DNA from: a virus
Length of the DNA: 64,000 bases
Reading direction: 5' to 3' (one strand)
IMG/VR virus record: IMGVR_UViG_3300045988_179183
The position numbers and the translations under genes were made by a program. Under the pieces are notes generated by a model. It was not told where the DNA came from and did not search any database. It worked only from the letters and a program-made list of their open reading frames with translations. The stretch's first letter is position 1, and every line of letters starts with the position of its first letter. This document shows positions 42,780 to 56,037 of this stretch, piece by piece.

Positions 42780-43055
42780 TTAATTAATCTTTTTACTTAA
42801 CTCTGATAATCTACTTAAAAATTCGTCCTTCAATAAATGATATTTATTTAACAATGAACTTAAATCACTAGCCGTATCAAATGACACTCTCTCAACTGCG
42901 AGAGATATCGCCCTTTCTAAAGTGACACCGTATGCTAAATCTTTCGAATATGATTCCTTGATTTTCTCGCCGCTTCTTATTTCGAACACGTCATATCTAC
43001 CAAGGGTACCCGGGCAGGGTTTGATCTCAATATTCTCAATTATTAATGAATCCAT
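42780..43055 (-). CDS. Hypothetical protein
   Basis: 91-aa ORF. Confidence 0.5.
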   Translation of the reverse strand: MDSLIIENIEIKPCPGTLGRYDVFEIRSGEKIKESYSKDLAYGVTLERAISLAVERVSFDTASDLSSLLNKYHLLKDEFLSRLSELSKKIN

Positions 43056-43056
43056 G

Positions 43057-43623
43057 CTATAATCCTTTCTTGATTAAAAATGTGTTTACTTTTGCTTCAA
43101 CTAATTCGGATAAAAATTCCTCCGGTGATACGGGTCGAACTATCGAACTTAACTTCTTACTTTTATCATTGATCGCCCAGAACCAAGAATCCAAAATATT
43201 CAACATTCTCTGATTCTCAATCATATCATCCTTCAACGCCTGAAATTCAGTGTCAGTATAGATAGCTTCATCAACTGATTTCTCCGTTAATTTGATATAA
43301 TCATCACCGAATTTAAACTTTCCTTGATTTTTATTCGCTTCGATACGGATATCCTTGCGAAAATTCGCCTCGTAAATATCACATTTCAATTTACTCCTAT
43401 TGTATAGCGCCTCTGCTTCCGCCTTCCAGATCCCCACCTTGTTCAACAATGCTGAAACGGTCACTATCTCGCCGTACAAATTTCCATGATCGATCCTGCA
43501 CAAAGCGTCAATATCTATTTCATCTTCCGAATCCTCCGATATCAGCACAACAGGCCTATTTCCTATATGAACAACAGTATTCATCTCTTCTTGTTTTCGT
43601 TTACGTCGTTTAAAGATACCCAT
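43057..43623 (-). CDS. Hypothetical protein
   Basis: 188-aa ORF between the SSB-like gene and dnaE. Confidence 0.5.
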   Translation of the reverse strand: MGIFKRRKRKQEEMNTVVHIGNRPVVLISEDSEDEIDIDALCRIDHGNLYGEIVTVSALLNKVGIWKAEAEALYNRSKLKCDIYEANFRKDIRIEANKNQGKFKFGDDYIKLTEKSVDEAIYTDTEFQALKDDMIENQRMLNILDSWFWAINDKSKKLSSIVRPVSPEEFLSELVEAKVNTFLIKKGL

Positions 43624-43656
43624 TCAAAAATCAAATCACAACAACCAAAATAACCG

Positions 43657-45624
43657 TTACGTTAGTATCAACACCTCCGTGTTTTCATTCGCGTAAATAG
43701 CCATTTGTTGATTTCTCTCGTCCCAGTTTGTTCGACCGTTCATAAACAGGATCGTATCCTTACAGTTTTTCAAAATATTTTCGAACGATTCATATTCATT
43801 GGACCAGAAAACAACCGTTCGAAACTGGTAATTCTGCTCAAGCGTGATGATGGCGTAATCACCCTTTCGTCCAGTTTTTATTGCGATTTCATACACATAA
43901 CCCCCAGCCGTTAAATTATAACTTTTCGTTTCCAAGGGATCGTCCACTATTTCCGAAAAATCTTTGAAAGGATACTCCGAATCACCAACCATCTCCTTGA
44001 AATAATCCAAGTATAATTTTGAGTAATTGAAAAACGCCAAACCACACAATTTCTTCTGCCTCAAATTATGCCACCACTCTAGTTTCACCTTATCGGGATT
44101 CAACTCAAACACATCTTTTTCCTTATCGATTTTTACCTTATTAACGGTTCTGTATCGTTTTATAAGTTTTATCCTGTCTATAACGTTTGATATTGATTCT
44201 AGCTTATCGAAAGCACCACATGAAATCAAATTTTCTATAACACTTTTATTAACGGCACTTCCTTTCTGTGAATGACGGTCTAAAAATTCATCAAAACCAA
44301 AGTAGGGGCCGTTCTCGGATCTTTCCTTCATGATCTCCGCTTGTGCCTTCTCGCCGACCTGTTTCACTGATGAGATTGACCACACCAAACTTTTATCAGT
44401 GAAATCTGTCTTGATCTTATCCGTCGATTCATTAATATCAGGGGGGGTCACCTTGATATTTCCTATTTCATTTATCTCGTGTAGATAAACGGGGAAATCA
44501 TCATCATCAGCGTAGGAGAACGCAACGGACCAGAAAGCTAACGGATAATTTACTTTTAACCACTGACACGCGTATCCTGTGTTTGCATACGCGACCGCGT
44601 GGGATTTATTGAACTGATAATCAGCCATATTCTCAATTTCCTTCCATGTCTCTTCCGCGTATTTTTGATCAACACCGAAATTCTCGATATAATTTTTCAA
44701 AAATCTTTCCCTGAAGGGTTGAAGTTTCTCCACGTTCTTCTTACCAATCGCACGGCGTGCGCCATCCGCGTCAACAAGATTAAACCCTCCTAACACTTGG
44801 AACATTTTCATTGTCTGCTCCTGCCATATCATGATATACCGGCTACTTTGAAGTATTTCTCCCGCCCCTTTTCTAAATGATACTTCCCTCTCACCCTTTT
44901 TACGAAGGATATACTCGTTATGGAAATTTCCCTCCATAACCCCCGGTCGATATAACCCAATACAGTTTACAAGCTCTGTTATGTTATCGGGCTTTAACAT
45001 CTTACAATATCCGGTTAACCCTTTCGCGCCAAAATGAAATACATCACCATTCCACCCCCTTTGAAAATACGAGTAAACTTTCGGATCATCAAGAGGTAAT
45101 TCATAGAGGTTGATTTCTTCACCAGTATCATCTTTGATTAATTTCAATATATCACCGAACTTACTTAACTGCAAGATTCCCAGAATATCCTCTTTCAAAA
45201 AACCCGCGGTGTCAAGTTCACCACCCTCCCACTCACTGATCAACATATCACCCTGCCGGCGAATCGGATTCCAATGATACATATCCTTTTCATCCGGGTA
45301 AATCATCATGGCACATGCGTGAATCGATTTCGCCTTAGGTTGACCCTGTATCAAGCCGACCATCTCGATGATCTCCGGGTTTCTGTTAATGAAATTCGCG
45401 ACATCTTTTTTCTGACAGGCGATTCTGAATAAATCATCAAAATCCTTCACACCATCTATTTTAGAAGTAAATGAGTTTACCTCTGCGACGGGGACACCTT
45501 TCAACCTACATAGATCCTTGACGGCGGCCTTGACTTGAAGAGTCGTGTAGGTTCCCACGGAGCAAACTTGATCGGCACCGTAACGCTCCTCCATGTATCT
45601 TTTAACTTCCGGTCTTCTCGCCAT
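43657..45624 (-). CDS. dnaE: DNA polymerase III alpha (DnaE), C-terminal segment
   Basis: RRPEVKRYMEERYGADQVCSVGTYTTLQVKAAVKDLCR matches the DnaE palm/fingers. The frame is open upstream to 45693 and encodes ...RLRDIDTDFE (catalytic Asp motif) before the first ATG. Confidence 0.85.
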   Translation of the reverse strand: MARRPEVKRYMEERYGADQVCSVGTYTTLQVKAAVKDLCRLKGVPVAEVNSFTSKIDGVKDFDDLFRIACQKKDVANFINRNPEIIEMVGLIQGQPKAKSIHACAMMIYPDEKDMYHWNPIRRQGDMLISEWEGGELDTAGFLKEDILGILQLSKFGDILKLIKDDTGEEINLYELPLDDPKVYSYFQRGWNGDVFHFGAKGLTGYCKMLKPDNITELVNCIGLYRPGVMEGNFHNEYILRKKGEREVSFRKGAGEILQSSRYIMIWQEQTMKMFQVLGGFNLVDADGARRAIGKKNVEKLQPFRERFLKNYIENFGVDQKYAEETWKEIENMADYQFNKSHAVAYANTGYACQWLKVNYPLAFWSVAFSYADDDDFPVYLHEINEIGNIKVTPPDINESTDKIKTDFTDKSLVWSISSVKQVGEKAQAEIMKERSENGPYFGFDEFLDRHSQKGSAVNKSVIENLISCGAFDKLESISNVIDRIKLIKRYRTVNKVKIDKEKDVFELNPDKVKLEWWHNLRQKKLCGLAFFNYSKLYLDYFKEMVGDSEYPFKDFSEIVDDPLETKSYNLTAGGYVYEIAIKTGRKGDYAIITLEQNYQFRTVVFWSNEYESFENILKNCKDTILFMNGRTNWDERNQQMAIYANENTEVLILT

Positions 45625-45657
45625 CTCGAAATCAGTATCGATGTCCCTTAGTCTGGC

Positions 45658-46643
45658 AGCGAACCGTGCTTGATTCGCTGCCGCTTTTCTAATTTAATTG
45701 ATTTAACTATATATTCCATTTCAAATTTTGTTTTATCTGTTTTACAAATCTAGATTTTTCAATAAAAGACATCACCTTTCTCCTTATATCTGTTTCTCTT
45801 AAATACACCTCCGTATATAAAGGAACCCATTTCCTTTCGAATAGCTTGCCTTTCTGAAGAAAAGTAAGTAATGTATCATGATTACCACTCGGTGATAATG
45901 TTTTTTGTGCGTCATAAGCAGATAGAAATTTATGTACCTCTAAAGTATAAATATTTATCATCACAATCGGTTTCGCATTCGGATTAAGACTCCCTTTCGC
46001 AACACCCCGGTCTTTTCGGATTACTGAGATATGATCCTTCATTTCCTGGGACCATTTATTCCCATAATTACCATTTTTCCCACCCACTCGTCTCGGCGGC
46101 TTAATACCGCCAATTTTTAAATTTAGTGTTCGTCGATCTCTCACCCACTGATGATCAACTACACGTTTTTCCTGAATCAATGCATCATCTACGGTATTAA
46201 AATACAACAAATTCACTCTCTTAAACGCACCAACCCCGTACAATCTCACGCAATTACCTAATGGCATTGGTAAAGGGTCCTTGTAATCTTTTAAACCGGT
46301 GGAGTAATCCGTCTTGATTCCGCCACCAATATAAGAATCTTCCACTGTTTTTGATGAATGAACCCCAACATATACTTTTCCGTTTACCATACAGGTTGTT
46401 TTATACAAAATATTATAAAGGTTATTGTCACCCTTAAACGGATTCTTTTGTCCGTTCGAGCATTTTGCTAATATCTCCTGATCCGACACTAACGATTCTA
46501 TCTCCATCTTTTAAATCTTGAGCTTTTACATCTAATTTTTCTCCCGATCTAAAAATACACACTTTATCATCAAAATCCAACTCTATATCTAAATTATTAT
46601 CGAATGTGATTTTTACAACGTCCACTTCAACTTGTTGACCGAT
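45658..46643 (-). mobile_element. ~1-kb insertion splitting dnaE: GIY-YIG endonuclease cassette, possibly a group I intron (boundaries approximate)
   Basis: DnaE homology stops after FERFLNKGR (codon at 46646-46644) and resumes at ARLRDIDTDF (from ~45657). The endonuclease ORF fills most of the gap. Confidence 0.45.
45707..46507 (-). CDS. GIY-YIG homing endonuclease
   Basis: NILYKTTCMVNGKVYVGVH (GIY...YVG), later GGKNGNYGNKWSQEMKDHIS and NPNAKPIV repeats typical of I-TevI-like enzymes. Confidence 0.75.
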   Translation of the reverse strand: MEIESLVSDQEILAKCSNGQKNPFKGDNNLYNILYKTTCMVNGKVYVGVHSSKTVEDSYIGGGIKTDYSTGLKDYKDPLPMPLGNCVRLYGVGAFKRVNLLYFNTVDDALIQEKRVVDHQWVRDRRTLNLKIGGIKPPRRVGGKNGNYGNKWSQEMKDHISVIRKDRGVAKGSLNPNAKPIVMINIYTLEVHKFLSAYDAQKTLSPSGNHDTLLTFLQKGKLFERKWVPLYTEVYLRETDIRRKVMSFIEKSRFVKQIKQNLKWNI

Positions 46644-48056
46644 ACGACCTTTATTCAGAAAACGTTCGAATAGCAAATCGTAATCAAACGGGTTAATGTG
46701 CGTCAGACCCAATAAATAGGCGACGAGGGAGCCACAAGCTGATCCACGGCCGAACCCTACGAGTATACCTTGACGTTTACACCATTGGGTGATATCCCAA
46801 AGTATCAAGAAATAATCAACAACATCTCCGTATTTAATTACATCTATCTCAGTTTCAAGTCTATCAAGATACTTCTCTTGTTCATCAACATCACTTATCC
46901 CCATGCTATTAAACCCATCCGCGACCAAGGATATAAGCATATCAACTTTTGATCCATCATATTTCTTGAACTCCTCCTCGGTCATTTTATATTTAGGAAG
47001 ATGACGTTGTGATAGATCGACCTTGAAATTACTACACCTTTCAGCGATATCATTTGTGTTCTCGATCGCGAATCCGATGATATCAAGCATAATATCTTGG
47101 TCATTATCAGAGAATAACTCCCTAATCTCCATCAAATATTCTTCGTTACATTTGAAGTATTGATTTTTTGAAAAATCGTTACTTATACCCGCGGATGAAT
47201 TCAACGCTTTTTTCAGATAGAAATATTCTTGGTCCAAATAATACGCATCACAGATATTTGTGGGCAACATGGAACTTGAGAAATATTCCTGAAGATTCAA
47301 AAGATATACCCTATCTCTTTCATTTGAATCAAACTTAACTGAATCAAGTTGATAGTATGTGTTCATCAATTCTTTCGGCACATCTTTAAATTGCAGGCTC
47401 TTCGGGTCAATCACGATAATTAATCCCTCTCTCAATGACAGAAACTTTCCTTCATCGATCCTCACATTATTATCAACGTTAATTTCCTTGTTGATAGAAA
47501 GAAGGTTCATCCACCCTGTTTCATCCACGACGTAAACCTTCACATCGTACAGAAGATCTTTCTTTTGATTGAACACGGTAACGGTTTCACCGATCACCGG
47601 TTTCAAACCGTGTTTCTGGCATTCCAACTGAAATTTAAGCACACCCGCAAGTGTGTTTTTCTCACAGATACCCAAAATACTCACACCGAAAAAATTCGCT
47701 TTTCGACACCAATCTCCATAATCTCCGGTTCCGTTCAATAATTCAAACGGACCTCTCACTCCCAGAAATGATTCGGTCGGTAAATCACTATCAACCTTAC
47801 CGATATATTTCAAGAGTTTCAACTTCACTTTCGATTCATTACCCTTTCTCAAAGTGTAATACAGACGGCCGAACTTATAGATGTAATTATTCGCAGTGAT
47901 GGGTGTTCCTATGTAATTAAACCCTCGATCAAACAGAAGTCCGTCGACATTGGGCCCTGATAATTCATATGTATCACCATCCATTGTGATAATACCCAGG
48001 TCGGAAATATCATATATAAATCCATTGCGATCGAGATACGATAACAGTTCTTTCAT
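46434..48056 (-). CDS. dnaE: DNA polymerase III alpha (DnaE), N-terminal segment (PHP-like domain plus start of palm)
   Basis: GFGRGSACGSLVAYLLGLTHINPFDYDLLFERFLNKGR is the DnaE signature. The last 69 codons (46437-46643) have no DnaE counterpart. Confidence 0.85.
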   Translation of the reverse strand: MKELLSYLDRNGFIYDISDLGIITMDGDTYELSGPNVDGLLFDRGFNYIGTPITANNYIYKFGRLYYTLRKGNESKVKLKLLKYIGKVDSDLPTESFLGVRGPFELLNGTGDYGDWCRKANFFGVSILGICEKNTLAGVLKFQLECQKHGLKPVIGETVTVFNQKKDLLYDVKVYVVDETGWMNLLSINKEINVDNNVRIDEGKFLSLREGLIIVIDPKSLQFKDVPKELMNTYYQLDSVKFDSNERDRVYLLNLQEYFSSSMLPTNICDAYYLDQEYFYLKKALNSSAGISNDFSKNQYFKCNEEYLMEIRELFSDNDQDIMLDIIGFAIENTNDIAERCSNFKVDLSQRHLPKYKMTEEEFKKYDGSKVDMLISLVADGFNSMGISDVDEQEKYLDRLETEIDVIKYGDVVDYFLILWDITQWCKRQGILVGFGRGSACGSLVAYLLGLTHINPFDYDLLFERFLNKGRIGQQVEVDVVKITFDNNLDIELDFDDKVCIFRSGEKLDVKAQDLKDGDRIVSVGSGDISKMLERTKESV

Positions 48057-48079
48057 ATTTTAAATATAATGGGAACCCT

Positions 48080-48097
48080 TTTACGGGGCCCCGTAAA
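48080..48097 (-). terminator. 18-bp GC-cored perfect palindrome (hairpin) between genes
   Basis: tttacggggccccgtaaa. No clear U-tract, so terminator function is uncertain. Confidence 0.3.
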
Positions 48098-48104
48098 TTC
48101 AAAT

Positions 48105-48701
48105 TTATATCTCGCCCTGGCTGGAATCACAACTCGATGCCTCAATTGCCTTAACACACTTGTAAATATACACGTTGCTTTTTCCAAGAATGGTTGCTAT
48201 TTCAGCTTTTTTCTTTCCCTCAGAGAGAAGTTGTTTGATTTGAGGTAATAGTGGGTTACTGAGAGAGATCACACCGTTTCTCTTCCCGGTCACTGACTGT
48301 TTCTTCGCCTTCTTCTCAGCCGGTTTTTCATCCACACTTTTATCCGTTTCAACTGTGTGCTTCCTGAAATCATCCGGGTTGAAATTTTCACGGAATGAAA
48401 GGATCGCATCCAACTCACTCTCTTCAAGATCCTTCATATCGCGATCATCAACAATCGCGTCAACCCTGGCGTATAAATCGCATGCGCCAAACGCCGCCAG
48501 TTGATCGTAAAATTCGGTTGCCTGATCGCACTTGCTCTTTACATCCTGACCCAGTTGATCCGCAACCGAATTCTTTCGAGCCTCATATTCTTCCAATGTC
48601 TCAACTAATTTTAAATTAGACATTGTGATATAATTTTTAATTCCACGAATTGATGCTTCTTTACGAAGTTCCTCACGGGTCATTTCACTAAACTTTTTCA
48701 T
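48105..48701 (-). CDS. Putative DNA-binding protein (SAP-like N-terminus, HTH-like C-terminus)
   Basis: MTREELRKEASIRGIKNYITMSNLKLVETLEE (SAP-like); KKKAEIATILGKSNVYIYKCVKAIE (HTH-like). Confidence 0.45.
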   Translation of the reverse strand: MKKFSEMTREELRKEASIRGIKNYITMSNLKLVETLEEYEARKNSVADQLGQDVKSKCDQATEFYDQLAAFGACDLYARVDAIVDDRDMKDLEESELDAILSFRENFNPDDFRKHTVETDKSVDEKPAEKKAKKQSVTGKRNGVISLSNPLLPQIKQLLSEGKKKAEIATILGKSNVYIYKCVKAIEASSCDSSQGEI

Positions 48702-48745
48702 AATCTCTTGTTTTTAAGTTGTTACTGTTTCATTGTTTCAATGTC

Positions 48746-48776
48746 TAAAGATACACAATGTTTATTTATTTACCAA
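48746..48776 (-). promoter_or_regulatory. Promoter (-7 TATCTTTA)
   Basis: TTGG-N20/21-TATCTTTA, 44 nt upstream of ATG 48701. Abuts the stop of 48766..49569. Confidence 0.55.
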
Positions 48777-49569
48777 CGAATCCAGCAAAAAATCGGTACT
48801 TTTCAATATTAAATTTTATGTCATTCCATTGAGATTGTTGTACATCGATACCCACCATCTTATGAAGCATCACGGGAATTTTTTCTTCAAGTCCGCTATC
48901 CGTATATCTTACACCGTGTAAACCATGAATAACTGGATTAGATGTATCGATACTTCTGATAAAGTGATACTTATCCTCGTTATATTGGCAAACTTCTTGC
49001 GGTAATACTGTGCCCAGTAAATGCAACGGCTTTTCACAATCCATAACACCGTGATTGATGAGCTGGTCAATGAACATTTTTCTTCCTCTACAATATGCCT
49101 TCGATGTATTCTCATCAGCCGCGAGACTTAAATAAATGGGTAAGTTGAAAGGTAGCGCAACCATATCACAGCATTCGACCATGCATTTATAGCATTCGAC
49201 AAGTTCATTCCAACTTATCCCCTGAACAACACCGATTGAATAGCTGCACGATATTTTCTCCCACGTTCTCGCCATTCTCATCGTTTCTTTCGCATTTCTC
49301 AAAACATCGGGTAAAACGTAATAAGTTGGCTTCAGTGCCTTAATCCATGAACGAAATCTATTTGCGTCAAATGCCGACCCCAATTCGAACACTGAATTGT
49401 CAAGAATTACCTCGCGTCCCTTGTTAACAAGCGCATCCATGAAAAATTCGAAATAATCGCCACCTATATCGGGATCTTCAAACAAGTGAACAAGTGCGTA
49501 ATCATAATCAGTCATCGATTGAACCTTGTTCATAATCGATAACGGTGCTTCATGCGCTATCTTAATCAT
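48766..49569 (-). CDS. Uncharacterised protein, possibly a second TGT/DpdA-fold paralog
   Basis: REVILDNSVFELG vs DpdA DRIWLDSGGFTLF; GVVQGISWNE vs SIGGLAQGRE; PLHLLGT vs YVHLLGC. An 8-nt overlap with the queC stop suggests coupling. Confidence 0.4.
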   Translation of the reverse strand: MIKIAHEAPLSIMNKVQSMTDYDYALVHLFEDPDIGGDYFEFFMDALVNKGREVILDNSVFELGSAFDANRFRSWIKALKPTYYVLPDVLRNAKETMRMARTWEKISCSYSIGVVQGISWNELVECYKCMVECCDMVALPFNLPIYLSLAADENTSKAYCRGRKMFIDQLINHGVMDCEKPLHLLGTVLPQEVCQYNEDKYHFIRSIDTSNPVIHGLHGVRYTDSGLEEKIPVMLHKMVGIDVQQSQWNDIKFNIEKYRFFAGFVGK

Positions 49570-51292
49570 TGTGTTGATATTTTATGGGATCCGTCATTCC
49601 GTTTAATTCAAACGCTTCGAGCCGCTCGGTACAATTATGCACCAAATATCCCTCACAAATAAATGAACCAGCACTAGTCTTAATATCATATACATGTGCC
49701 TCCTTAACTGGTTCATCTATTTTATTTACCACCACTTGGTCTAAAAGCCTTATTGAATTATATGTGCCTAACTTTTCAAGCATCGACGCACGTTTTCCCG
49801 CACCGTACTTTAATGTAATTATGTACGGTCTTGTTACTCTCCAAGTTTGCATAAGGGTACCGCCCTCTTTAAAACCGGGCGTAACGGATTGCGACCTGTC
49901 ACACTTAATCCCCAACAATGATAATGCTTTATCGATTTGAATACACTTTTCTTTATTCACAATCACTGCTTGGCTTATAGAAAAACCGAATGATCCATTT
50001 GATTTATTATGACAAGCACACCCATCAGCTATCAACATTCCGTTTAAATACCCGCGCAAATACTCAGGGTGTTCATTAAATTTTGTCTTCTCAAGAAACA
50101 CAGGACCATAACCGCCACCAGCACGGTGCATGTTGGTATCCTCCCTGTAAGTGATTTTTACATCACATGGCTTGATATATTTATCATAAAGAGACCAAAA
50201 TTCTTCCAATACATCGAACTCCTTTTGAAATGTATGAACACCCCGTGTGTCAATGGATCCATCACCATCAGCAAATCCACGTAAATAACCCAGGGCGAAT
50301 TTTTCATCATCAACCTCTTTTCTTGTATTTGATACTGGCCAAAATTTCACCATATAAGTAGCATCCTTTCTCTTCATCTCCTCGTACTTTCTATATCTTG
50401 GCCTTAACTTCATATTTGAAGCATACACATAATGATCCTTCGTTAAAAGAAGACCCGCCATATCATATACCGGTTGAATACCATTATCAAACTTATCCAA
50501 TACCTTCGCCACACAAATTTTCTTCGTGTTTTCATCCACGGACCACACTTCGTCTCCAATACAAATATCCTTAATTTGCTTCCATGTATTATCACTCATC
50601 AGTACTTTCTGCGATTCTTCTATACACGACCCACACCTTCCACACGATCTTCCTTCTGGATCGGGATTATAGCACGTGTGAGTGTTACCCAGAACCAAAT
50701 TAATTTCATAATCATTGAACCCGAGGATCGTCATCGCACGTAACCCTTCGGCAAGTACACCGCCCTTATCCATGTGATTGAACGGAGCTTCGTATCCCAC
50801 TCTTTCACTACCCCAATTCGATACTTTAAACGCGTGCTCACAAGCGATTCGAGATTCCTCGGATGTATCAGGATAACAGCAATGATCGCCGCTATGTAGG
50901 CCTAAAAACACATCAACATTACTCTCCGTTTTATTCGCCCATGAAAGTGCCTTCCCATAAATGATAGCGGAAAAGATCACGTTTCTATTTTCAATAACCG
51001 TTGATTTCATATTTTCGGACGCGTAATGACCTTCCGGTATAGGTTCACCACCTACATGAAGGGACGAATTACTGTCACTGAAACAATCCCTCAGATCGAT
51101 AATCTGGTGTGATAACTTAAACCTCTTACCTTGCAAGAACTCAATATTTCTTTTCACCTTCTCCAATTCAACCTGATGCTTCTGACCGTATTGAAAAGAA
51201 TAAGCCTTAACTTCGTAATCATGAGCAAGTAAATACATGAGCAAGCACGTACTATCCAATCCGCCCGATAAACTTAAAATCGCCTTTTTCAT
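49562..51292 (-). CDS. queC: 7-cyano-7-deazaguanine (preQ0) synthase QueC, interrupted by one intein
   Basis: MKKAILSLSGGLDST (PP-loop), Zn-site Cys cluster SCGRCGS[intein]CTERLEAF. Start trimmed from 51349 to ATG 51292, 1 nt after the upstream stop. Confidence 0.85.
   Translation of the reverse strand: MKKAILSLSGGLDSTCLLMYLLAHDYEVKAYSFQYGQKHQVELEKVKRNIEFLQGKRFKLSHQIIDLRDCFSDSNSSLHVGGEPIPEGHYASENMKSTVIENRNVIFSAIIYGKALSWANKTESNVDVFLGLHSGDHCCYPDTSEESRIACEHAFKVSNWGSERVGYEAPFNHMDKGGVLAEGLRAMTILGFNDYEINLVLGNTHTCYNPDPEGRSCGRCGSCIEESQKVLMSDNTWKQIKDICIGDEVWSVDENTKKICVAKVLDKFDNGIQPVYDMAGLLLTKDHYVYASNMKLRPRYRKYEEMKRKDATYMVKFWPVSNTRKEVDDEKFALGYLRGFADGDGSIDTRGVHTFQKEFDVLEEFWSLYDKYIKPCDVKITYREDTNMHRAGGGYGPVFLEKTKFNEHPEYLRGYLNGMLIADGCACHNKSNGSFGFSISQAVIVNKEKCIQIDKALSLLGIKCDRSQSVTPGFKEGGTLMQTWRVTRPYIITLKYGAGKRASMLEKLGTYNSIRLLDQVVVNKIDEPVKEAHVYDIKTSAGSFICEGYLVHNCTERLEAFELNGMTDPIKYQHND
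49634..50626 (-). mobile_element. Intein (331 aa) with LAGLIDADG endonuclease, in QueC
   Basis: CIEESQKVLMSDNTWKQIKDICIGDEVWSV (block A), LLLTKDHYV (block B), LGYLRGFADGDGS and LRGYLNGMLIADGCA, ends EGYLVHN|C. Confidence 0.8.
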
Positions 51293-51293
51293 T

Positions 51294-51878
51294 TTATAAT
51301 CTGTAATTAAATTCCATAATATCCAATACCTGGGAAACTCTTTCGTCAATACTTCCGCTCACATAGTGTATCCCTCGTGGTGCGAAGTCTTGTAACATAC
51401 GCGCGTTTTTCTCAAATAAACGATCGATTTCCTTTTGAAATACTTCATCAGTTGACCGAACTCCGTCGTCCACGATTTTAAACTCCGGCCTCAGTACAAT
51501 GTGATGGCTGTAAAGGGGCTCTATATGAAATAGAAGTTGGGTGACCGTGTCAACCATTTCATCCCAGAGAGGCCTATCCTCGCTCGATGACCTGTCCCGG
51601 TTATACTCCGTGTAGCATAGAACATCTAATAAACATCTATCGGAAATAATATGATCATGCGCTGACATCGCTGACTCGATAATTTCTTTCACATACGAAG
51701 TTGCGATCCAAAGTTGATCATAAATACCCGCTTCCTTATTAATCTTTATGCCGCGATCATTACCTTTCCTTGAAGGAGATCCCATAAAGAGAGATCCCTT
51801 CAAACACTCCTCCTTTTTCAACGCCTCAATTAACGTTGTCTTACCTGTGCATTGAGCACCTGAAATTGATATAATCAT
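51294..51878 (-). CDS. P-loop nucleoside/nucleotide kinase-like protein
   Basis: MIISISGAQCTGKTTLIEAL (Walker A at the extreme N-terminus), later ISDRCLLD (kinase-like DR motif). Confidence 0.5.
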   Translation of the reverse strand: MIISISGAQCTGKTTLIEALKKEECLKGSLFMGSPSRKGNDRGIKINKEAGIYDQLWIATSYVKEIIESAMSAHDHIISDRCLLDVLCYTEYNRDRSSSEDRPLWDEMVDTVTQLLFHIEPLYSHHIVLRPEFKIVDDGVRSTDEVFQKEIDRLFEKNARMLQDFAPRGIHYVSGSIDERVSQVLDIMEFNYRL

Positions 51879-51898
51879 TTTTAAACAATTAATTTATT

Positions 51899-51958
51899 TC
51901 TAACACCATAAAGATACACAAAGTGTATCGAATTATCAACAAAAACAGAGATTATTTT
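51899..51958 (-). repeat. Promoter cassette variant, copy B
   Basis: Near-identical to 30801-30860. Perfect inverted repeat GATACACAAAGTGTATC at 51913-51929. Confidence 0.9.
51909..51943 (-). promoter_or_regulatory. Promoter (-7 TATCTTTA) with a perfect 7-3-7 inverted repeat
   Basis: 30 nt upstream of ATG 51878. An internal promoter inside the deazaguanine cluster. Confidence 0.6.
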
Positions 51959-52452
51959 CTCTGTTTGTCGTTTTGATATTGGCCGTTATATAAATCTTCC
52001 TCGTTTACATCCGTGCAATCATAACAGTAGAACTGGGCCACGCGGGCGTTCTTCTCGATCGTGATTGTGTGAAACACTTCCATGAACGTACCCATCGAAT
52101 CAGTGTGAAAACCCGCGTCGAAAATCGATGAATAAATCCAAGCACCGCACCGGGCAACTGAACTTCGCTGTACTATCCGACCCATTTTGTTTTTGGGTAT
52201 GTTACAACCTTCAATGAAATCAACCATGTAATACCCCGGAGGTAGATGCCAAACTTCGTTTCCATTTATATCAGGAAAACATCGAACTTCTTCGTATGAG
52301 GGTAACATTGTTTTGCCCTCGCGGGGTATGAATCCATGACCTTTCACAACACTTACCTTTCTCAACCGAATATCACATCCGTGCTGGGTTAGATTCTCTT
52401 CTAAATGATTAACGATAACACCTTCTCCGTGTAATTCCTTTCCGTTTAACAT
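51952..52452 (-). CDS. dCTP deaminase / dUTPase-superfamily protein
   Basis: GRIVQRSSVARCGAWIYSSIFDAGFHTDSMGTFMEVF...ARVAQF matches the RSS.aR.G...DpGf.G pattern of Dcd/Dut trimeric enzymes. Confidence 0.65.
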   Translation of the reverse strand: MLNGKELHGEGVIVNHLEENLTQHGCDIRLRKVSVVKGHGFIPREGKTMLPSYEEVRCFPDINGNEVWHLPPGYYMVDFIEGCNIPKNKMGRIVQRSSVARCGAWIYSSIFDAGFHTDSMGTFMEVFHTITIEKNARVAQFYCYDCTDVNEEDLYNGQYQNDKQRK

Positions 52453-52476: not shown

Positions 52477-53373
52477 CTATTCAATTATTTCATCATTCTG
52501 TTTTTCATACAAGAACTCTCTCGCTCTCGCGTCAGCGAACGCGTACAAAACTATATCTCGACTCAGATAATGATACGGTATCCTGCCAGATAGATCGGGG
52601 CCGGCACTCCCATACGCATCTTGCCCCGGTACGAGGGTTCCCTCTGCCACTTTCTTCAAAAAATTATTACGTGCCTTCTCAATATTGATGGCGTACCTGA
52701 AAATAGAGAAATCGACCGAATCCGGCATGACAAACCGGGTTGTTTCAACGTTTGAACATCCCAGGAGATGAACGTATTTCCCTTTATCGCGAGCGTACTT
52801 CATCATCTTTCCCAGTTCATCCCTGTACACATGCCATTCCCTACCCTGAGCCAGACCTCCTATCGAAAGGATGGGGTAGAGGGGCGAGTCACAGAGATCC
52901 TTCCAGTATTGAAAACCCTGATGCATTTTAAATACCGGTGCGGGATAGTACCCTGTTATTTCCTTGATCTCGTCTCTCAGATAATTTTTAGGTGATAACA
53001 GGTTATCATCTTTTCTAAAATACTCGTTATCAAGTTCAAAACACATTTTAAACGGATACATTTTAAGAAACCGAAGAAACTTTTTCTTCATTTTCTCGCA
53101 TTCATTCCAAAAATCAGGGTTGTTTTCACCCAGTTTCTTCTGTTTTTTGAATAATGTGAAACCACCGGAATCCAACCATATTCGATCGCCTCCAACAACG
53201 GTTTGAATAAATTTAATATACCCGGCGGTCATATCAACGGTTGAAATTAGATAGTCGTTATCATGTGCAAGCAAAAGTTTTTCCAAGACCTTATCGGACC
53301 TACAACTACACACCAGACCACCACCCAATCCCATCACAAGCCTTTTTTTAGGTTTTTCAAACATATCAATCAA
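52477..53373 (-). CDS. dpdA: DpdA-type (TGT-family) DNA 7-deazaguanine transglycosylase
   Basis: WLDSGGFTLF (TGT DSGGFQ motif), LSIGGLAQG (GGLAVGE), VHLLG (YLMGVG). Embedded among preQ0 synthesis genes. Confidence 0.7.
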   Translation of the reverse strand: MIDMFEKPKKRLVMGLGGGLVCSCRSDKVLEKLLLAHDNDYLISTVDMTAGYIKFIQTVVGGDRIWLDSGGFTLFKKQKKLGENNPDFWNECEKMKKKFLRFLKMYPFKMCFELDNEYFRKDDNLLSPKNYLRDEIKEITGYYPAPVFKMHQGFQYWKDLCDSPLYPILSIGGLAQGREWHVYRDELGKMMKYARDKGKYVHLLGCSNVETTRFVMPDSVDFSIFRYAINIEKARNNFLKKVAEGTLVPGQDAYGSAGPDLSGRIPYHYLSRDIVLYAFADARAREFLYEKQNDEIIE

Positions 53374-53806: not shown

Positions 53807-54448
53807 TTATTTTCTCCCGAGTTTATAAATCTGTATCGCTCTTAAAAACTCATCTCGGCTATTCATCTCATTTGTTAAAAACGCCCCCGAACAATAGTGG
53901 GTTGTCATCGTACTATTATCTTCCGCGCCCCGCATACTCACGCACATATGTTCCGCCTCAATATAAACTGCGATACCCAGCACTGTGTCGCCGAATATGT
54001 TAACCAAATAATCATGAATCTGACGAGTTAATTGTTCTTGTAATTGAGGCCGTTTGGCGAACCAGTGAACTATTCTGTTTAGTTTCGAAAGACCAATAAC
54101 TTGGCCACTTTCCTTGCTGATATACGCCAAACTACAGAATCCTGTGAACGGAAGTAAATGGTGTGAACACAATGAATTCACCTCGATCCCATGTTCAATT
54201 ACCATACCTGAGTATCCTGAACTTGGGAATACCGCCAATTTCGGAGGTGCAGAATACGCACCTGACGTGATTTCATTGACAAACATTTTCGCAACCCTGT
54301 ACGGTGTTTTTATCATGTTAGGGTCATTCTTCCAATCATACCCCAGGGCCTCCAAGAACTTACCGTACGCCTCGGTGGCCCTTGCCAACATCTCGTTTCT
54401 ATCATCATCGGAAAGAACGACGTTCCCTCCTGCCATTATTTTTTTCAT
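53807..54448 (-). CDS. folE: GTP cyclohydrolase I
   Basis: SLCSHHLLPFTGFCSLAYI and RPQLQEQLTRQI match FolE CEHHLLPF / QERLT motifs. Confidence 0.9.
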   Translation of the reverse strand: MKKIMAGGNVVLSDDDRNEMLARATEAYGKFLEALGYDWKNDPNMIKTPYRVAKMFVNEITSGAYSAPPKLAVFPSSGYSGMVIEHGIEVNSLCSHHLLPFTGFCSLAYISKESGQVIGLSKLNRIVHWFAKRPQLQEQLTRQIHDYLVNIFGDTVLGIAVYIEAEHMCVSMRGAEDNSTMTTHYCSGAFLTNEMNSRDEFLRAIQIYKLGRK

Positions 54449-54473: not shown

Positions 54474-55238
54474 CTAAGCATCTCTCTTATCTCCGAAGAT
54501 TATTATATGTAAGCGGTCAGAGTAGAAGTAGCCCAAATCTATACATCTCTGTGCCAACCATTTTCTTTTCTCTGCCAGTTTCTCCTCGGTATCCCCCTCC
54601 GGCATCAGATAGACTATTACAGGCCAGAAGGGGTCCAGTTTAGATACCTCCTTCTTAATTTTCCGAACTTGTCTCTCGACTTCCTTTATATCATCCTCCG
54701 AGGACACCACATATTTCAACTGCGAGAATTTCGATTCCATGATCCATGACACTATAGCGGGGATATTCTCCCTCGTTTTCGCGTGTTTCTCCGCGAATTC
54801 GCCCGAACTCGGAATTGAACTCTTCAATTTAGGTGAGATTGATACGACGTCTACGTACGTATCCTCATCCAGTACATCACCTCTCGCGATGGTTCCGTTC
54901 GTTTCCATGCTCACACTCAACTTATGTCTCCGACCTATCTCGATCAACGATCTCAACAATTCGGGATGAAGGGTCGGTTCTCCCCCGGTAATAAGCATGC
55001 ATTTTATCTGAGGGTTCATGATTATGATATCGACGACATCGTTCAATGAATATTTACCCTTTTCCGGGTTCCACGAGCTGTAGGCCGTGTCACATATACT
55101 CCCTTTAAAAGTACATCTCAGGTTACACCCAGATGTTCTTATAAGAATATGGGGGACCCCCACCTTCATACCCTCTCCCTGTATACAGGTGTGCAAATCA
55201 ATAATCGGTTGAATTTCTGAATAATCCATTTTTAACAT
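54474..55238 (-). CDS. queE: 7-carboxy-7-deazaguanine synthase QueE (radical SAM)
   Basis: IQGEGMKVGVPHILIRTSGCNLRCTFKGSICDT: QueE-type radical-SAM Cys cluster; LITGGEPTLH. Confidence 0.85.
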   Translation of the reverse strand: MLKMDYSEIQPIIDLHTCIQGEGMKVGVPHILIRTSGCNLRCTFKGSICDTAYSSWNPEKGKYSLNDVVDIIIMNPQIKCMLITGGEPTLHPELLRSLIEIGRRHKLSVSMETNGTIARGDVLDEDTYVDVVSISPKLKSSIPSSGEFAEKHAKTRENIPAIVSWIMESKFSQLKYVVSSEDDIKEVERQVRKIKKEVSKLDPFWPVIVYLMPEGDTEEKLAEKRKWLAQRCIDLGYFYSDRLHIIIFGDKRDA

Positions 55239-55465
55239 AAATAAGCGTTATACAATTCTATAAACTCGGCGAGATCCAGTTCTGAGAATCTCCGTTCTTT
55301 CGCAATCTCTTTAATAAGATCAAGTTGATTTTCATAAAGCTCGTCCGCCATCTCACCATACCCGCTCACCCTTAAATCAATCACAGGCAATGAAAGTTCA
55401 AATGCCAGACTTTCATCAAACCCATAGCGATCAACAAGATCATTTAGTTCCTTTTTCGTTATCAT
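55232..55465 (-). CDS. Small acidic protein of unknown function, coupled between queD and queE
   Basis: 77-aa ORF. Overlaps the queD stop (4 nt) and the queE start (7 nt). Confidence 0.5.
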   Translation of the reverse strand: MITKKELNDLVDRYGFDESLAFELSLPVIDLRVSGYGEMADELYENQLDLIKEIAKERRFSELDLAEFIELYNAYLC

Positions 55466-56037
55466 AACTTCACTTGTAGTTCAACCTTTGGGTTCACGAA
55501 TTTAATCCCTCGAAAAAGTTTATGATAAATCTCAGTTTTTGCCAGTGAAGGGCTAACTTCTATTTCTTCGGGATACATTTCCAAGTATCTATCATAATCA
55601 TTTCGATCCGATTCGGCATAACCAGTATCTGTTTCATGAACTCGCACTGATTGCACAACCACGTTACCCTCACCATTGTTAAATTCTGTTTTTTCCAATA
55701 TCGATTCAAAACAAGCGAAAAACATGGATGAGAGTAATTCAGCGGAGGGATTGCAAGGTAAAATTATCCACCTATCATTCATCGCCTGTATAAAATTTTT
55801 GTAAACCTCGTTATCCTTCGCCCACAATAAATGAGTATGATCGAATAAATCAACGACTTCTTTAAAATTACCAAGAAGACCGAAATCGACGACCATCCCT
55901 GCGTTATCCAAACGATCCGAGGTCAAAAATAACTCAACTTTATAGCTGTGTCCGTGAATTGAATGTGAACATCTGTCCGATGTACAATTTCTCACAATAT
56001 GGCTTCCCTCAAACTTAAACAATTTTCTAATTATCAT
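55462..56037 (-). CDS. queD: 6-carboxy-5,6,7,8-tetrahydropterin synthase QueD
   Basis: FKFEGSHIVRNCTSDRCSHSIHGHSYKVELFL: the QueD/PTPS Cys plus HGH motif. Confidence 0.85.
   Translation of the reverse strand: MIIRKLFKFEGSHIVRNCTSDRCSHSIHGHSYKVELFLTSDRLDNAGMVVDFGLLGNFKEVVDLFDHTHLLWAKDNEVYKNFIQAMNDRWIILPCNPSAELLSSMFFACFESILEKTEFNNGEGNVVVQSVRVHETDTGYAESDRNDYDRYLEMYPEEIEVSPSLAKTEIYHKLFRGIKFVNPKVELQVKL

Follow-up and report, generated by a model that had tools for sequence, protein, structure and literature searches.

The interrupted queC gene

The 64,000-nucleotide stretch of viral DNA analysed here (IMG/VR virus record IMGVR_UViG_3300045988_179183, hereafter the window) carries on its minus strand a gene for the preQ0 synthase QueC that is interrupted in frame by an insert of 331 codons. 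The open reading frame at 49562..51292 translates without internal stops into a protein of 576 residues. Its start was assigned to the ATG at 51292 (MKKAILSLSGG...), which is the same in all homologues, and not to the upstream TTG at 51349. The insert comprises codons 223-553 (window 49634..50626; 993 nucleotides; CIEESQKVLMSDNTW...EGYLVHN) and is flanked by ...C207-YNPDPEGRS-C217-GR-C220-GS on its N-terminal side and by C-TERLEAF on its C-terminal side. The features of the gene are listed below with the evidence for each. Here, Cys1 is the first residue of the insert, Cys+1 is the first residue after it, and site b denotes the insertion point CxxCxx^C.

49562..51292, minus strand: gene for the QueC precursor, comprising N-extein, intein and C-extein (576 codons plus stop; open reading frame, Pfam, phrog_1550)
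50627..51292, minus strand: N-extein, residues 1-222, which also carries YGQKHQVE, RN and YPDT (alignment to 2pg3 and 3bl5)
51251..51268, minus strand: PP-loop SGGLDS, residues 9-14 (QueC motif definition, PMC13329287)
50627..50674, minus strand: zinc ligands C207, C217 and C220 of the N-extein (alignment to 2pg3 and 3bl5)
49634..50626, minus strand: intein of 331 residues, the putative mobile unit (DNA absent from loci L004 and L005, 99.9% identical at the nucleotide level in locus L001)
50588..50626, minus strand: block A, CIEESQKVLMSDN (family alignment)
50624..50626, minus strand: Cys1, predicted nucleophile (conserved in all site-b homologues)
50432..50443, minus strand: block B, T62-K-D-H65 (TxxH; alignments A1 and A2)
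49757..50329, minus strand: LAGLIDADG endonuclease domain, intein residues ~100-290 (Pfam LAGLIDADG_3, Foldseek, mini-intein P0149)
50258..50290, minus strand: LAGLIDADG motif 1, GYLRGFADGDG (conserved, with its acidic residue)
50021..50053, minus strand: LAGLIDADG motif 2, GYLNGMLIADG (conserved, with its acidic residue)
49634..49693, minus strand: blocks F and G, VYDIKTSAGSFICEGYLVHN, ending in His330-Asn331 (invariant residues; hidden Markov model alignment to intein C-termini)
49562..49633, minus strand: C-extein, 23 residues plus stop (alignment to 2pg3 and 3bl5)
49631..49633, minus strand: Cys+1, predicted splicing nucleophile and fourth zinc ligand (present in all site-b homologues)

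The same 576-residue protein recurs on independent contigs, which number well over 100, come from several sources and in many cases are 100-103 kb in length. IMG/VR contained eight near-identical copies of the intein in addition to a copy in locus L003 that is 73% identical.

That the host protein is QueC, as a sequence-only reading of the window had proposed, was upheld by Pfam, PHROG and PDB matches. The Pfam QueC model covers residues 3-225 of the precursor (E 4.3e-36; 124.8 bits against a cutoff of 22), and the precursor matches phrog_1550 (QueC-like) at 1.2e-39. The exteins were joined in silico, and the resulting 245-residue spliced QueC aligned over its full length, and without a gap at the junction, to the solved structures 2pg3 (Pectobacterium; E 1.4e-14) and 3bl5 (Bacillus subtilis; E 6e-9). 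Its four cysteines fall on C186, C195, C198 and C201 of 3bl5. Because the zinc site of QueC is C(x)8CxxCxxC (PMC13329287), the insert separates zinc ligand 3 from ligand 4, the latter being the +1 residue; the C-terminal zinc cysteine site, in which the insert had been placed between CGRCGS and CTERLEAF, is thus interrupted between its third and fourth cysteines. The motif is complete only once the insert has been removed, when it reads C207-x9-C217-x2-C220-x2-C223 with a spacing of C(x)9 instead of C(x)8. The SGGxDS PP-loop and the YxQxHxxE motif of QueC are both present (as SGGLDS and YGQKHQVE), and the spliced protein also shares RN, YPD and the four-cysteine motif with the canonical, uninterrupted QueC proteins of B. 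subtilis, Pectobacterium and Escherichia coli.

The borders of the insert were established from intein-free alleles. The 90%-identity cluster of one occupied allele (P0043) includes nine proteins of 245 residues (222 + 23), encoded on contigs of 99-102 kb, which read ...CGRCGSCTERLEAF... at the junction. In BLAST comparisons of the window with the empty loci L004 and L005, the match stops at 50625 and restarts at 49633, and the subject sequence is continuous. The extra DNA is therefore exactly 49634..50626, so that the interval first proposed, on the minus strand, proved exact to the base. The empty site in these loci reads ...TGCGGCTCA|TGCACCGAG..., and that of L004 is also quoted as ...TGCGGAAGATGCGGCTCA|TGCACCGAGCGATTGGAAGCG... 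and ...GGTCGATCATGCGGAAGATGCGGCTCA|TGCACCGAGCGATTGGAAGCGTTC.... Within the phage group, exteins of intein-free alleles reach 99.6% identity to those of occupied ones, and pairs of full and empty alleles occur in two further lineages (570 versus 240 residues and 563 versus 233 residues).

The residues expected of an intein were followed across 13 aligned family members with identities of 35-73% (alignment A2). Cys1 is conserved across the family, His65 of block B is invariant and Thr62 is at least 90% conserved (alignments A1 and A2), and Asp314, Thr317 and Phe322 of block F and the His330-Asn331 pair of block G are all invariant. Cys+1 is present in every site-b allele. Both LAGLIDADG motifs keep the acidic residue before the final glycine in every full-length homologue, and Pfam LAGLIDADG_3 matched the insert above its gathering cutoff (E 5.9e-7; 30.1 bits against 22.5). 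When the profile of alignment A2 was compared with the PDB, only inteins and Hint domains and, more weakly, LAGLIDADG enzymes were recovered. The inteins matched were Spl DnaX (the best, at 1.3e-7), DnaB, NrdJ-1, PI-MtuI, PI-SceI and Prp8. Matches to the N-terminal part of this profile were separate from those to its C-terminal part, as expected of a Hint domain split by an endonuclease, and the C-terminus of the intein aligned by hidden Markov model with the C-termini of the Spl DnaX, PI-MtuI and NrdJ-1 inteins.

An AlphaFold2 model of the intein, built on 17 sequences, had a mean predicted local distance difference test score (pLDDT) of 92.7 and a predicted template-modelling score of 0.90. 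The best PDB matches of this model in Foldseek were the TliVMA intein (3.9e-14), PI-SceI and PhoVMA, followed by the free-standing endonucleases I-Tsp061I (2.1e-7) and I-DmoI (~1e-6) with a target template-modelling (TM) score of 0.6. The latter matches support the twice-repeated alpha-beta-beta-alpha-beta-beta-alpha fold of LAGLIDADG enzymes.

In profile and in fold, the insert is thus confirmed, far beyond chance, as the 331-residue Hint plus double-LAGLIDADG element that had been read from its sequence. It is very probably a canonical class-1 intein with a LAGLIDADG homing endonuclease, resident in the queC gene of an uncultured gut phage of ~100 kb. A bacterial intein-like domain was considered and rejected, since the +1 nucleophile, the His-Asn pair and intein-free alleles are all present. 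The GC content of the intein is lower than that of the N-extein (38.1 versus 42.5%), as is its GC content at third codon positions (34.7 versus 42.3%).

Distribution of the intein and its derivatives

Comparison of alleles indicates that the histories of the intein and of the exteins disagree. In alleles P0047-P0049, the N-extein is 73-79% identical to that of the window and the intein 99.4-100% identical; the inverse holds for P0050, with an N-extein at 94% and an intein at 72.5%. At the nucleotide level, the window and locus L001 are 66.2% identical in the N-extein, 75.3% in the C-extein and 66.0% in the downstream DNA, against 99.9% (one mismatch in 993) in the intein, and the tract of perfect identity at its borders extends from 3 nucleotides before the intein to 14 nucleotides after it. 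With locus L003 the relation is again inverted (N-extein 84.4%, intein 67.5%). These patterns argue that the intein is, or very recently was, mobile and that one transfer was recent.

Selection was assessed between the window and L003. Given that synonymous sites are saturated in this comparison, the ratio of the proportions of non-synonymous and synonymous differences (pN/pS) was used in place of the corresponding ratio of rates (dN/dS). Values of ~0.12, ~0.29 and ~0.25 were obtained for the N-terminal Hint part, the endonuclease and the C-terminal Hint part, respectively; a range of ~0.23-0.29 is also given for the Hint and endonuclease parts. Non-synonymous differences are thus far fewer than synonymous ones, and both intein domains therefore appear to be under purifying selection. 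Purifying selection on the exteins is strong, with a pN/pS of ~0.045 for the N-extein.

The intein family is found in unrelated phage backbones, namely the ~100-kb DnaE-encoding phage of the window, a T4-like phage of ~173 kb that encodes RegA and a clamp loader (L007) and a phage of 78-109 kb (L008). The L007 sequence (GCA_964322765.1, contig CAYDIL010000026.1) is 235,716 bp long and contains the queC-intein gene twice, in inverted orientation and with mirrored neighbours; as related contigs are ~173 kb, the duplicate is probably a fold-back artefact of assembly rather than biology. This phage also encodes a second, intein-free QueC-like paralogue directly upstream.

A HMMER scan of 1.84 billion representatives returned 163 clusters at E<=1e-3, and the 13 clusters at E<=1e-30 were all QueC proteins, fragments or free-standing derivatives. 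The nearest host of the family other than QueC was a glycosyltransferase (P0169; 36% identity). Among the protein clusters retrieved, ~58 have an intein at the site used in the window and ~57 at a second site, which indicates that QueC inteins are common in metagenomic phages of several lineages. A narrow search of GTDB species-representative genomes with a single C-terminal peptide pattern revealed no site-b QueC intein, only distant archaeal and bacterial inteins, and suggests that the intein is restricted to phages. A megablast search of GenBank phages with the queC gene gave no match, so that this phage is absent from the deposited phage records, and none of the 221 QueC phage records found in GenBank by tblastn contains this intein.

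Three intein sites in QueC were observed among the metagenomic phages: GDH^, YPD^C and CxxCxx^C, the last being that of the window. The GDH^ site, just before the YPDC substrate motif, is occupied in P0063-P0120 by an intein family unrelated to that of the window, in mini (~155 residues) and full (~385 residues) forms with the junctions ISN|S and HN|C. One protein (P0046; 945 residues) contains both this intein and one of the window type. In the window the GDH^ site is empty (50858..50893) and reads GDH-CC-YPDT, as against GDH-(A/V/S/E/T)(V/I)-YPDC in most alleles; this could be an immune variant or the scar of former occupancy. The YPD^C site is occupied by paralogues of the window's intein in P0052 (as its first insert), P0163 and P0165-P0168, those of P0163 and P0165-P0168 being 34-37% identical to it. 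All begin with alanine instead of cysteine (AVAKGS...LVHN|CSP) and have SxxH as block B, so that they may follow a class-2-like splicing route or be inactive.

Derivatives of the intein were also recovered. At the zinc site of P0149 (383 residues), from the T4-like lineage of ~173 kb, there is a natural mini-intein of 143 residues that is without residues ~105-295; this natural deletion therefore marks the limits of the endonuclease domain. Because the same lineage has full (570 residues) and empty (240 residues) alleles as well, the homing cycle is wholly represented within it. Two free-standing open reading frames, P0160 (L009 186..1202) and P0162 (L010 490..1470), are homologous to the whole intein (38-40% identical), each with a start and a stop codon of its own and with splice junctions that have degraded; P0160 has neither Cys1 nor the His-Asn pair. 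P0160 begins 3 nucleotides past the stop of an intact, intein-free queC, a position suggesting that a former intein has become a free-standing homing-endonuclease gene next to its previous target.

Predicted splicing and homing

The conserved residues, taken together with established intein chemistry, predict a class-1 route. In the precursor, with a calculated mass of 65.3 kDa, splicing would begin with an N-S acyl shift at Cys1, followed by trans-thioesterification by Cys+1 and cyclisation of Asn331 with the assistance of His330; an S-N shift would then finish the peptide bond. This would yield a QueC of 27.5 kDa with the restored zinc motif and a free intein of 37.8 kDa. Of the masses given in the sequence-only reading, ~38 kDa for the intein agrees with this calculation, and ~29 kDa for spliced QueC was too high. 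Since the last zinc ligand is also the +1 nucleophile, mature QueC would form only by splicing, and the earlier proposal of such a dependence is sound. The unspliced precursor should be without the native zinc site. As ligand 4 would be supplied only after splicing, QueC activity, and hence any modification of the phage DNA with 7-deazaguanines, would depend on splicing.

During co-infection, the free intein would be expected to cut an intein-less queC at the conserved coding sequence for CGxCGS|CTER, and repair from the intein-bearing copy would then install the intein in the cut allele. This mechanism is taken from the homing model, and it is the transfer itself that the population comparison makes visible. 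The target is G-rich and may lie in DNA that itself carries 7-deazaguanines.

The points that weigh against the reading of the insert as a splicing and mobile intein concern both of these properties. As to splicing, the scores of Pfam Intein_splicing (PF14890; E 9.7e-6; 25.9 bits) and Hint (PF01079; E 5e-3; 16.8 bits) are below the respective gathering cutoffs of 35.8 and 29.7 and are suggestive only, and the single intein sequence gave no phmmer match to PDB sequences. Such scores point to a family that is divergent in sequence. The extein also scored below the cutoff of the NCBIfam equivalog TIGR00364 (114 versus 150 bits), and it is a divergent QueC, with YPDT in place of YPDC and IENRN in place of VPxRN; IENRN keeps the RN and YPDT keeps the tyrosine, with threonine replacing cysteine, R99 and Y131 being residues shown to be essential in QueC (PMC13329287). 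The sub-gathering Hint and Intein_splicing scores and the divergent extein would suit an insertion that does not splice, either as a decayed intein that inactivates queC as a pseudogene or as part of a permanent QueC-endonuclease fusion. This explanation is very improbable, however, in view of splicing residues that are all intact and conserved, the pN/pS of the exteins and the compact operon that the gene shares with FolE, QueD and QueE. Moreover, decayed forms look different, as shown by P0160 with its degraded junctions and its own start and stop. An assembly chimera, or an RNA-level intron with a homing-endonuclease reading frame, is a general possibility, and the window does contain a free-standing endonuclease reading frame in its split dnaE region; with the same protein present on well over 100 independent contigs as well as on eight IMG/VR contigs, a continuous frame and the fold of a Hint domain, the chance of either is minute. 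The RNA intron was rejected because Rfam gave no match over window positions 43000..52000 and the frame is continuous.

With regard to mobility, the intein is present in every allele whose exteins exceed 96% identity to those of the window, and it looks fixed in this exact sub-lineage, where ongoing homing is not demonstrable; the sharp tract of identity with L001 could in principle have come from ordinary recombination without an endonuclease. A splicing intein with a dead endonuclease, at a late stage of the homing cycle, would be passed on vertically and would change genomes only through general recombination when phages co-infect a cell. The apparent fixation would accord with this, as would the loss of the endonuclease within the family at the same site (mini-intein P0149), but we consider it improbable. 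Both catalytic acidic residues are kept in all full-length members and the endonuclease domain has a pN/pS of ~0.29, not ~1; the 99.9% identical copy stands in flanks of 66% identity with tract ends 3 and 14 nucleotides from its borders, and presence and absence are polymorphic among exteins that are 99% identical. A further proposal is compatible with a class-1 homing intein and would add a regulatory layer to it. Here, Zn2+ or a CxxC disulfide between C220 and Cys1 would hold back splicing and thereby place preQ0 synthesis under the control of metal or redox state. The precursor motif C207-x9-C217-x2-C220-x2-Cys1 would form a decoy zinc site with the spacing of the mature one, and the CxxCxxC1 geometry is kept in all 60-odd site-b alleles; an engineered redox trap reportedly used just such a CxxC, with a cysteine at -3 (CPGC). 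It is established elsewhere that zinc reversibly inhibits splicing through active-site residues and that an engineered disulfide at the N-terminal cysteine controls intein activity (PMC7765530, citing Callahan et al. 2011/2013). If gating operates, metal or redox state would control the maturation of QueC post-translationally, and with it a 7-deazaguanine modification that guards the phage genome against restriction. We regard such gating as unlikely, as the host motif and the need for Cys+1 together dictate the geometry, so that its conservation needs no regulation, and in the anaerobic gut a disulfide trap is unlikely to matter. The class-1 homing intein is most readily viewed as a selfish parasite that finds shelter in a motif its host cannot lose, rather than as a regulator.

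Known inteins and neighbouring genes

Inteins are usually inserted in conserved functional motifs, and their known hosts are mostly proteins of replication, repair and nucleotide metabolism. The intein of the window adjoins extein cysteines, and its Cys1 forms a CxxC with Cys-3, a feature set beside inteins of other cysteine-cluster metalloenzymes; the Pyrococcus abyssi MoaA intein and the engineered CPGC trap may be parallel cases. The inteins of the PI-SceI, TliVMA and PhoVMA type likewise carry a two-motif LAGLIDADG endonuclease within the Hint domain, together with Cys1, TxxH, His-Asn and Cys+1. In structure they match best (Foldseek E 3.9e-14 to 1e-10), yet they are only 10-14% identical to the window's intein, which is much smaller (331 residues versus chains of 361-448 residues) and resides in a PP-loop ATPase, whereas their host is V-ATPase subunit A. 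The intein region also resembles that of the NCBIfam family NF038136, the intein-containing Rv2578c family radical SAM protein (positions 72-338; E 1.9e-10, sub-threshold), but with 40 bits against a cutoff of 700 it is not a member. As in mycobacteriophages (PMC5050341) and in the TerL of crAss-like phages (PMC7886860), a mobile phage intein occupies a critical motif, and the patchy distribution among related phages described for crAss-like inteins (PMC7886860) is similar to that seen here. The host differs, being a DNA-hypermodification (preQ0) enzyme in place of replication and packaging genes, as does the polymerase, which is of the DnaE type here and PolA or PolB in crAss-like phages (PMC7886860).

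The sequence-only reading had suggested that inteins have not been described in QueC, and nothing to the contrary was found in the GenBank records or in print. A search of the literature, as distinct from InBase and InterPro, found no paper linking QueC, ExsB, queuosine or deazaguanine with inteins. No QueC intein is reported in the main text of the 2015 intein survey (Novikova 2016), in the paper on crAss-like phage inteins (Yutin 2021) or in the 2023 paper on phage 7-deazaguanines (Cui 2023, PMC10516641), and the July 2026 survey of the PF06508 family (Libby 2026, PMC13329287) does not mention inteins. Mechanistically, this appears to be an ordinary class-1 LAGLIDADG intein, with the host protein as its new aspect. 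A nucleic-acid hypermodification enzyme would thus be added to the list of intein hosts and, provided that the pathway serves here as it does in characterised phages, a DNA modification that counters restriction would need a protein-splicing step. The uncultured gut phages offer a natural homing-cycle series (empty site, full intein, endonuclease-deleted mini-intein and free-standing derivative), and one apparent transfer is recent enough for the tract ends to be read within a few bases, making this a good system for homing in natural phage populations. In practical terms, a compact Cys/Cys intein of 331 residues and a natural 143-residue mini-intein, both predicted to splice, are available beside a metal site. 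Annotation pipelines label the intein-bearing proteins plainly as '7-cyano-7-deazaguanine synthase'.

The window encodes the full preQ0 pathway on one strand. The other genes of the pathway and those of the polymerase region are listed below.

53807..54448, minus strand: FolE (same strand as queC)
54474..55238, minus strand: QueE (same strand as queC)
55462..56037, minus strand: QueD (same strand as queC)
46434..48056, minus strand: first part of DnaE, with the PHP domain and the start of the NTPase domain
45707..46507, minus strand: open reading frame of 266 residues between the DnaE parts (PHROG 'homing endonuclease', 6e-18)
43657..45624, minus strand: second part of DnaE, with the rest of the protein and the finger and HHH domains

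The minus-strand gene at 52477..53373 matches the PHROG 'queuine tRNA-ribosyltransferase' (1.6e-10). Its model is a TIM barrel (pLDDT 91.4) whose best PDB fold matches are tRNA-guanine transglycosylases, at a weak level (E 2.4e-4; TM 0.42-0.48), and its sole GenBank phage relative is from a Campylobacter phage (47% identity). It is a candidate divergent DpdA. Searches of PADLOC, Pfam and PDB sequences with this gene and with 48766..49569 returned nothing. Characterised phages with such genes insert 7-deazaguanines into their DNA by means of DpdA-family transglycosylases (PMC10516641). Given the full FolE/QueD/QueE/QueC set and the transglycosylase-like TIM-barrel protein, it is reasonable to suppose that preQ0 would be used for phage DNA rather than for tRNA. 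The gene at 48766..49569 (minus strand), which belongs to PHROG 19058 of unknown function (2e-46), accompanies queC in all related loci. An AAA_28 kinase-like gene, which in the window lies upstream of queC at 51294..51878, is fused to QueC in some relatives (P0111).

The gene for the polymerase III alpha subunit (DnaE) is divided between two minus-strand open reading frames in the region 43657..48056. The catalytic LPDLDTDF, which heads the C-terminal part in L005, is represented in the window only by ...DIDTDFE, just upstream of the ATG of the second reading frame and in frame with it. Possibilities for the window's polymerase are frameshifting, assembly as two subunits or an unrecognised intron. 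In relatives, the C-terminal DnaE reading frame (L004 11820..15572; L005 11820..14384) contains one or two inteins, for example NH|CISGYERIM...VVCN|SHAVAY and SARR|CLDENT...GYLVHN|CIGKKD, which are absent from the window. Such comparisons indicate that the content of mobile elements varies gene by gene within the phage group.

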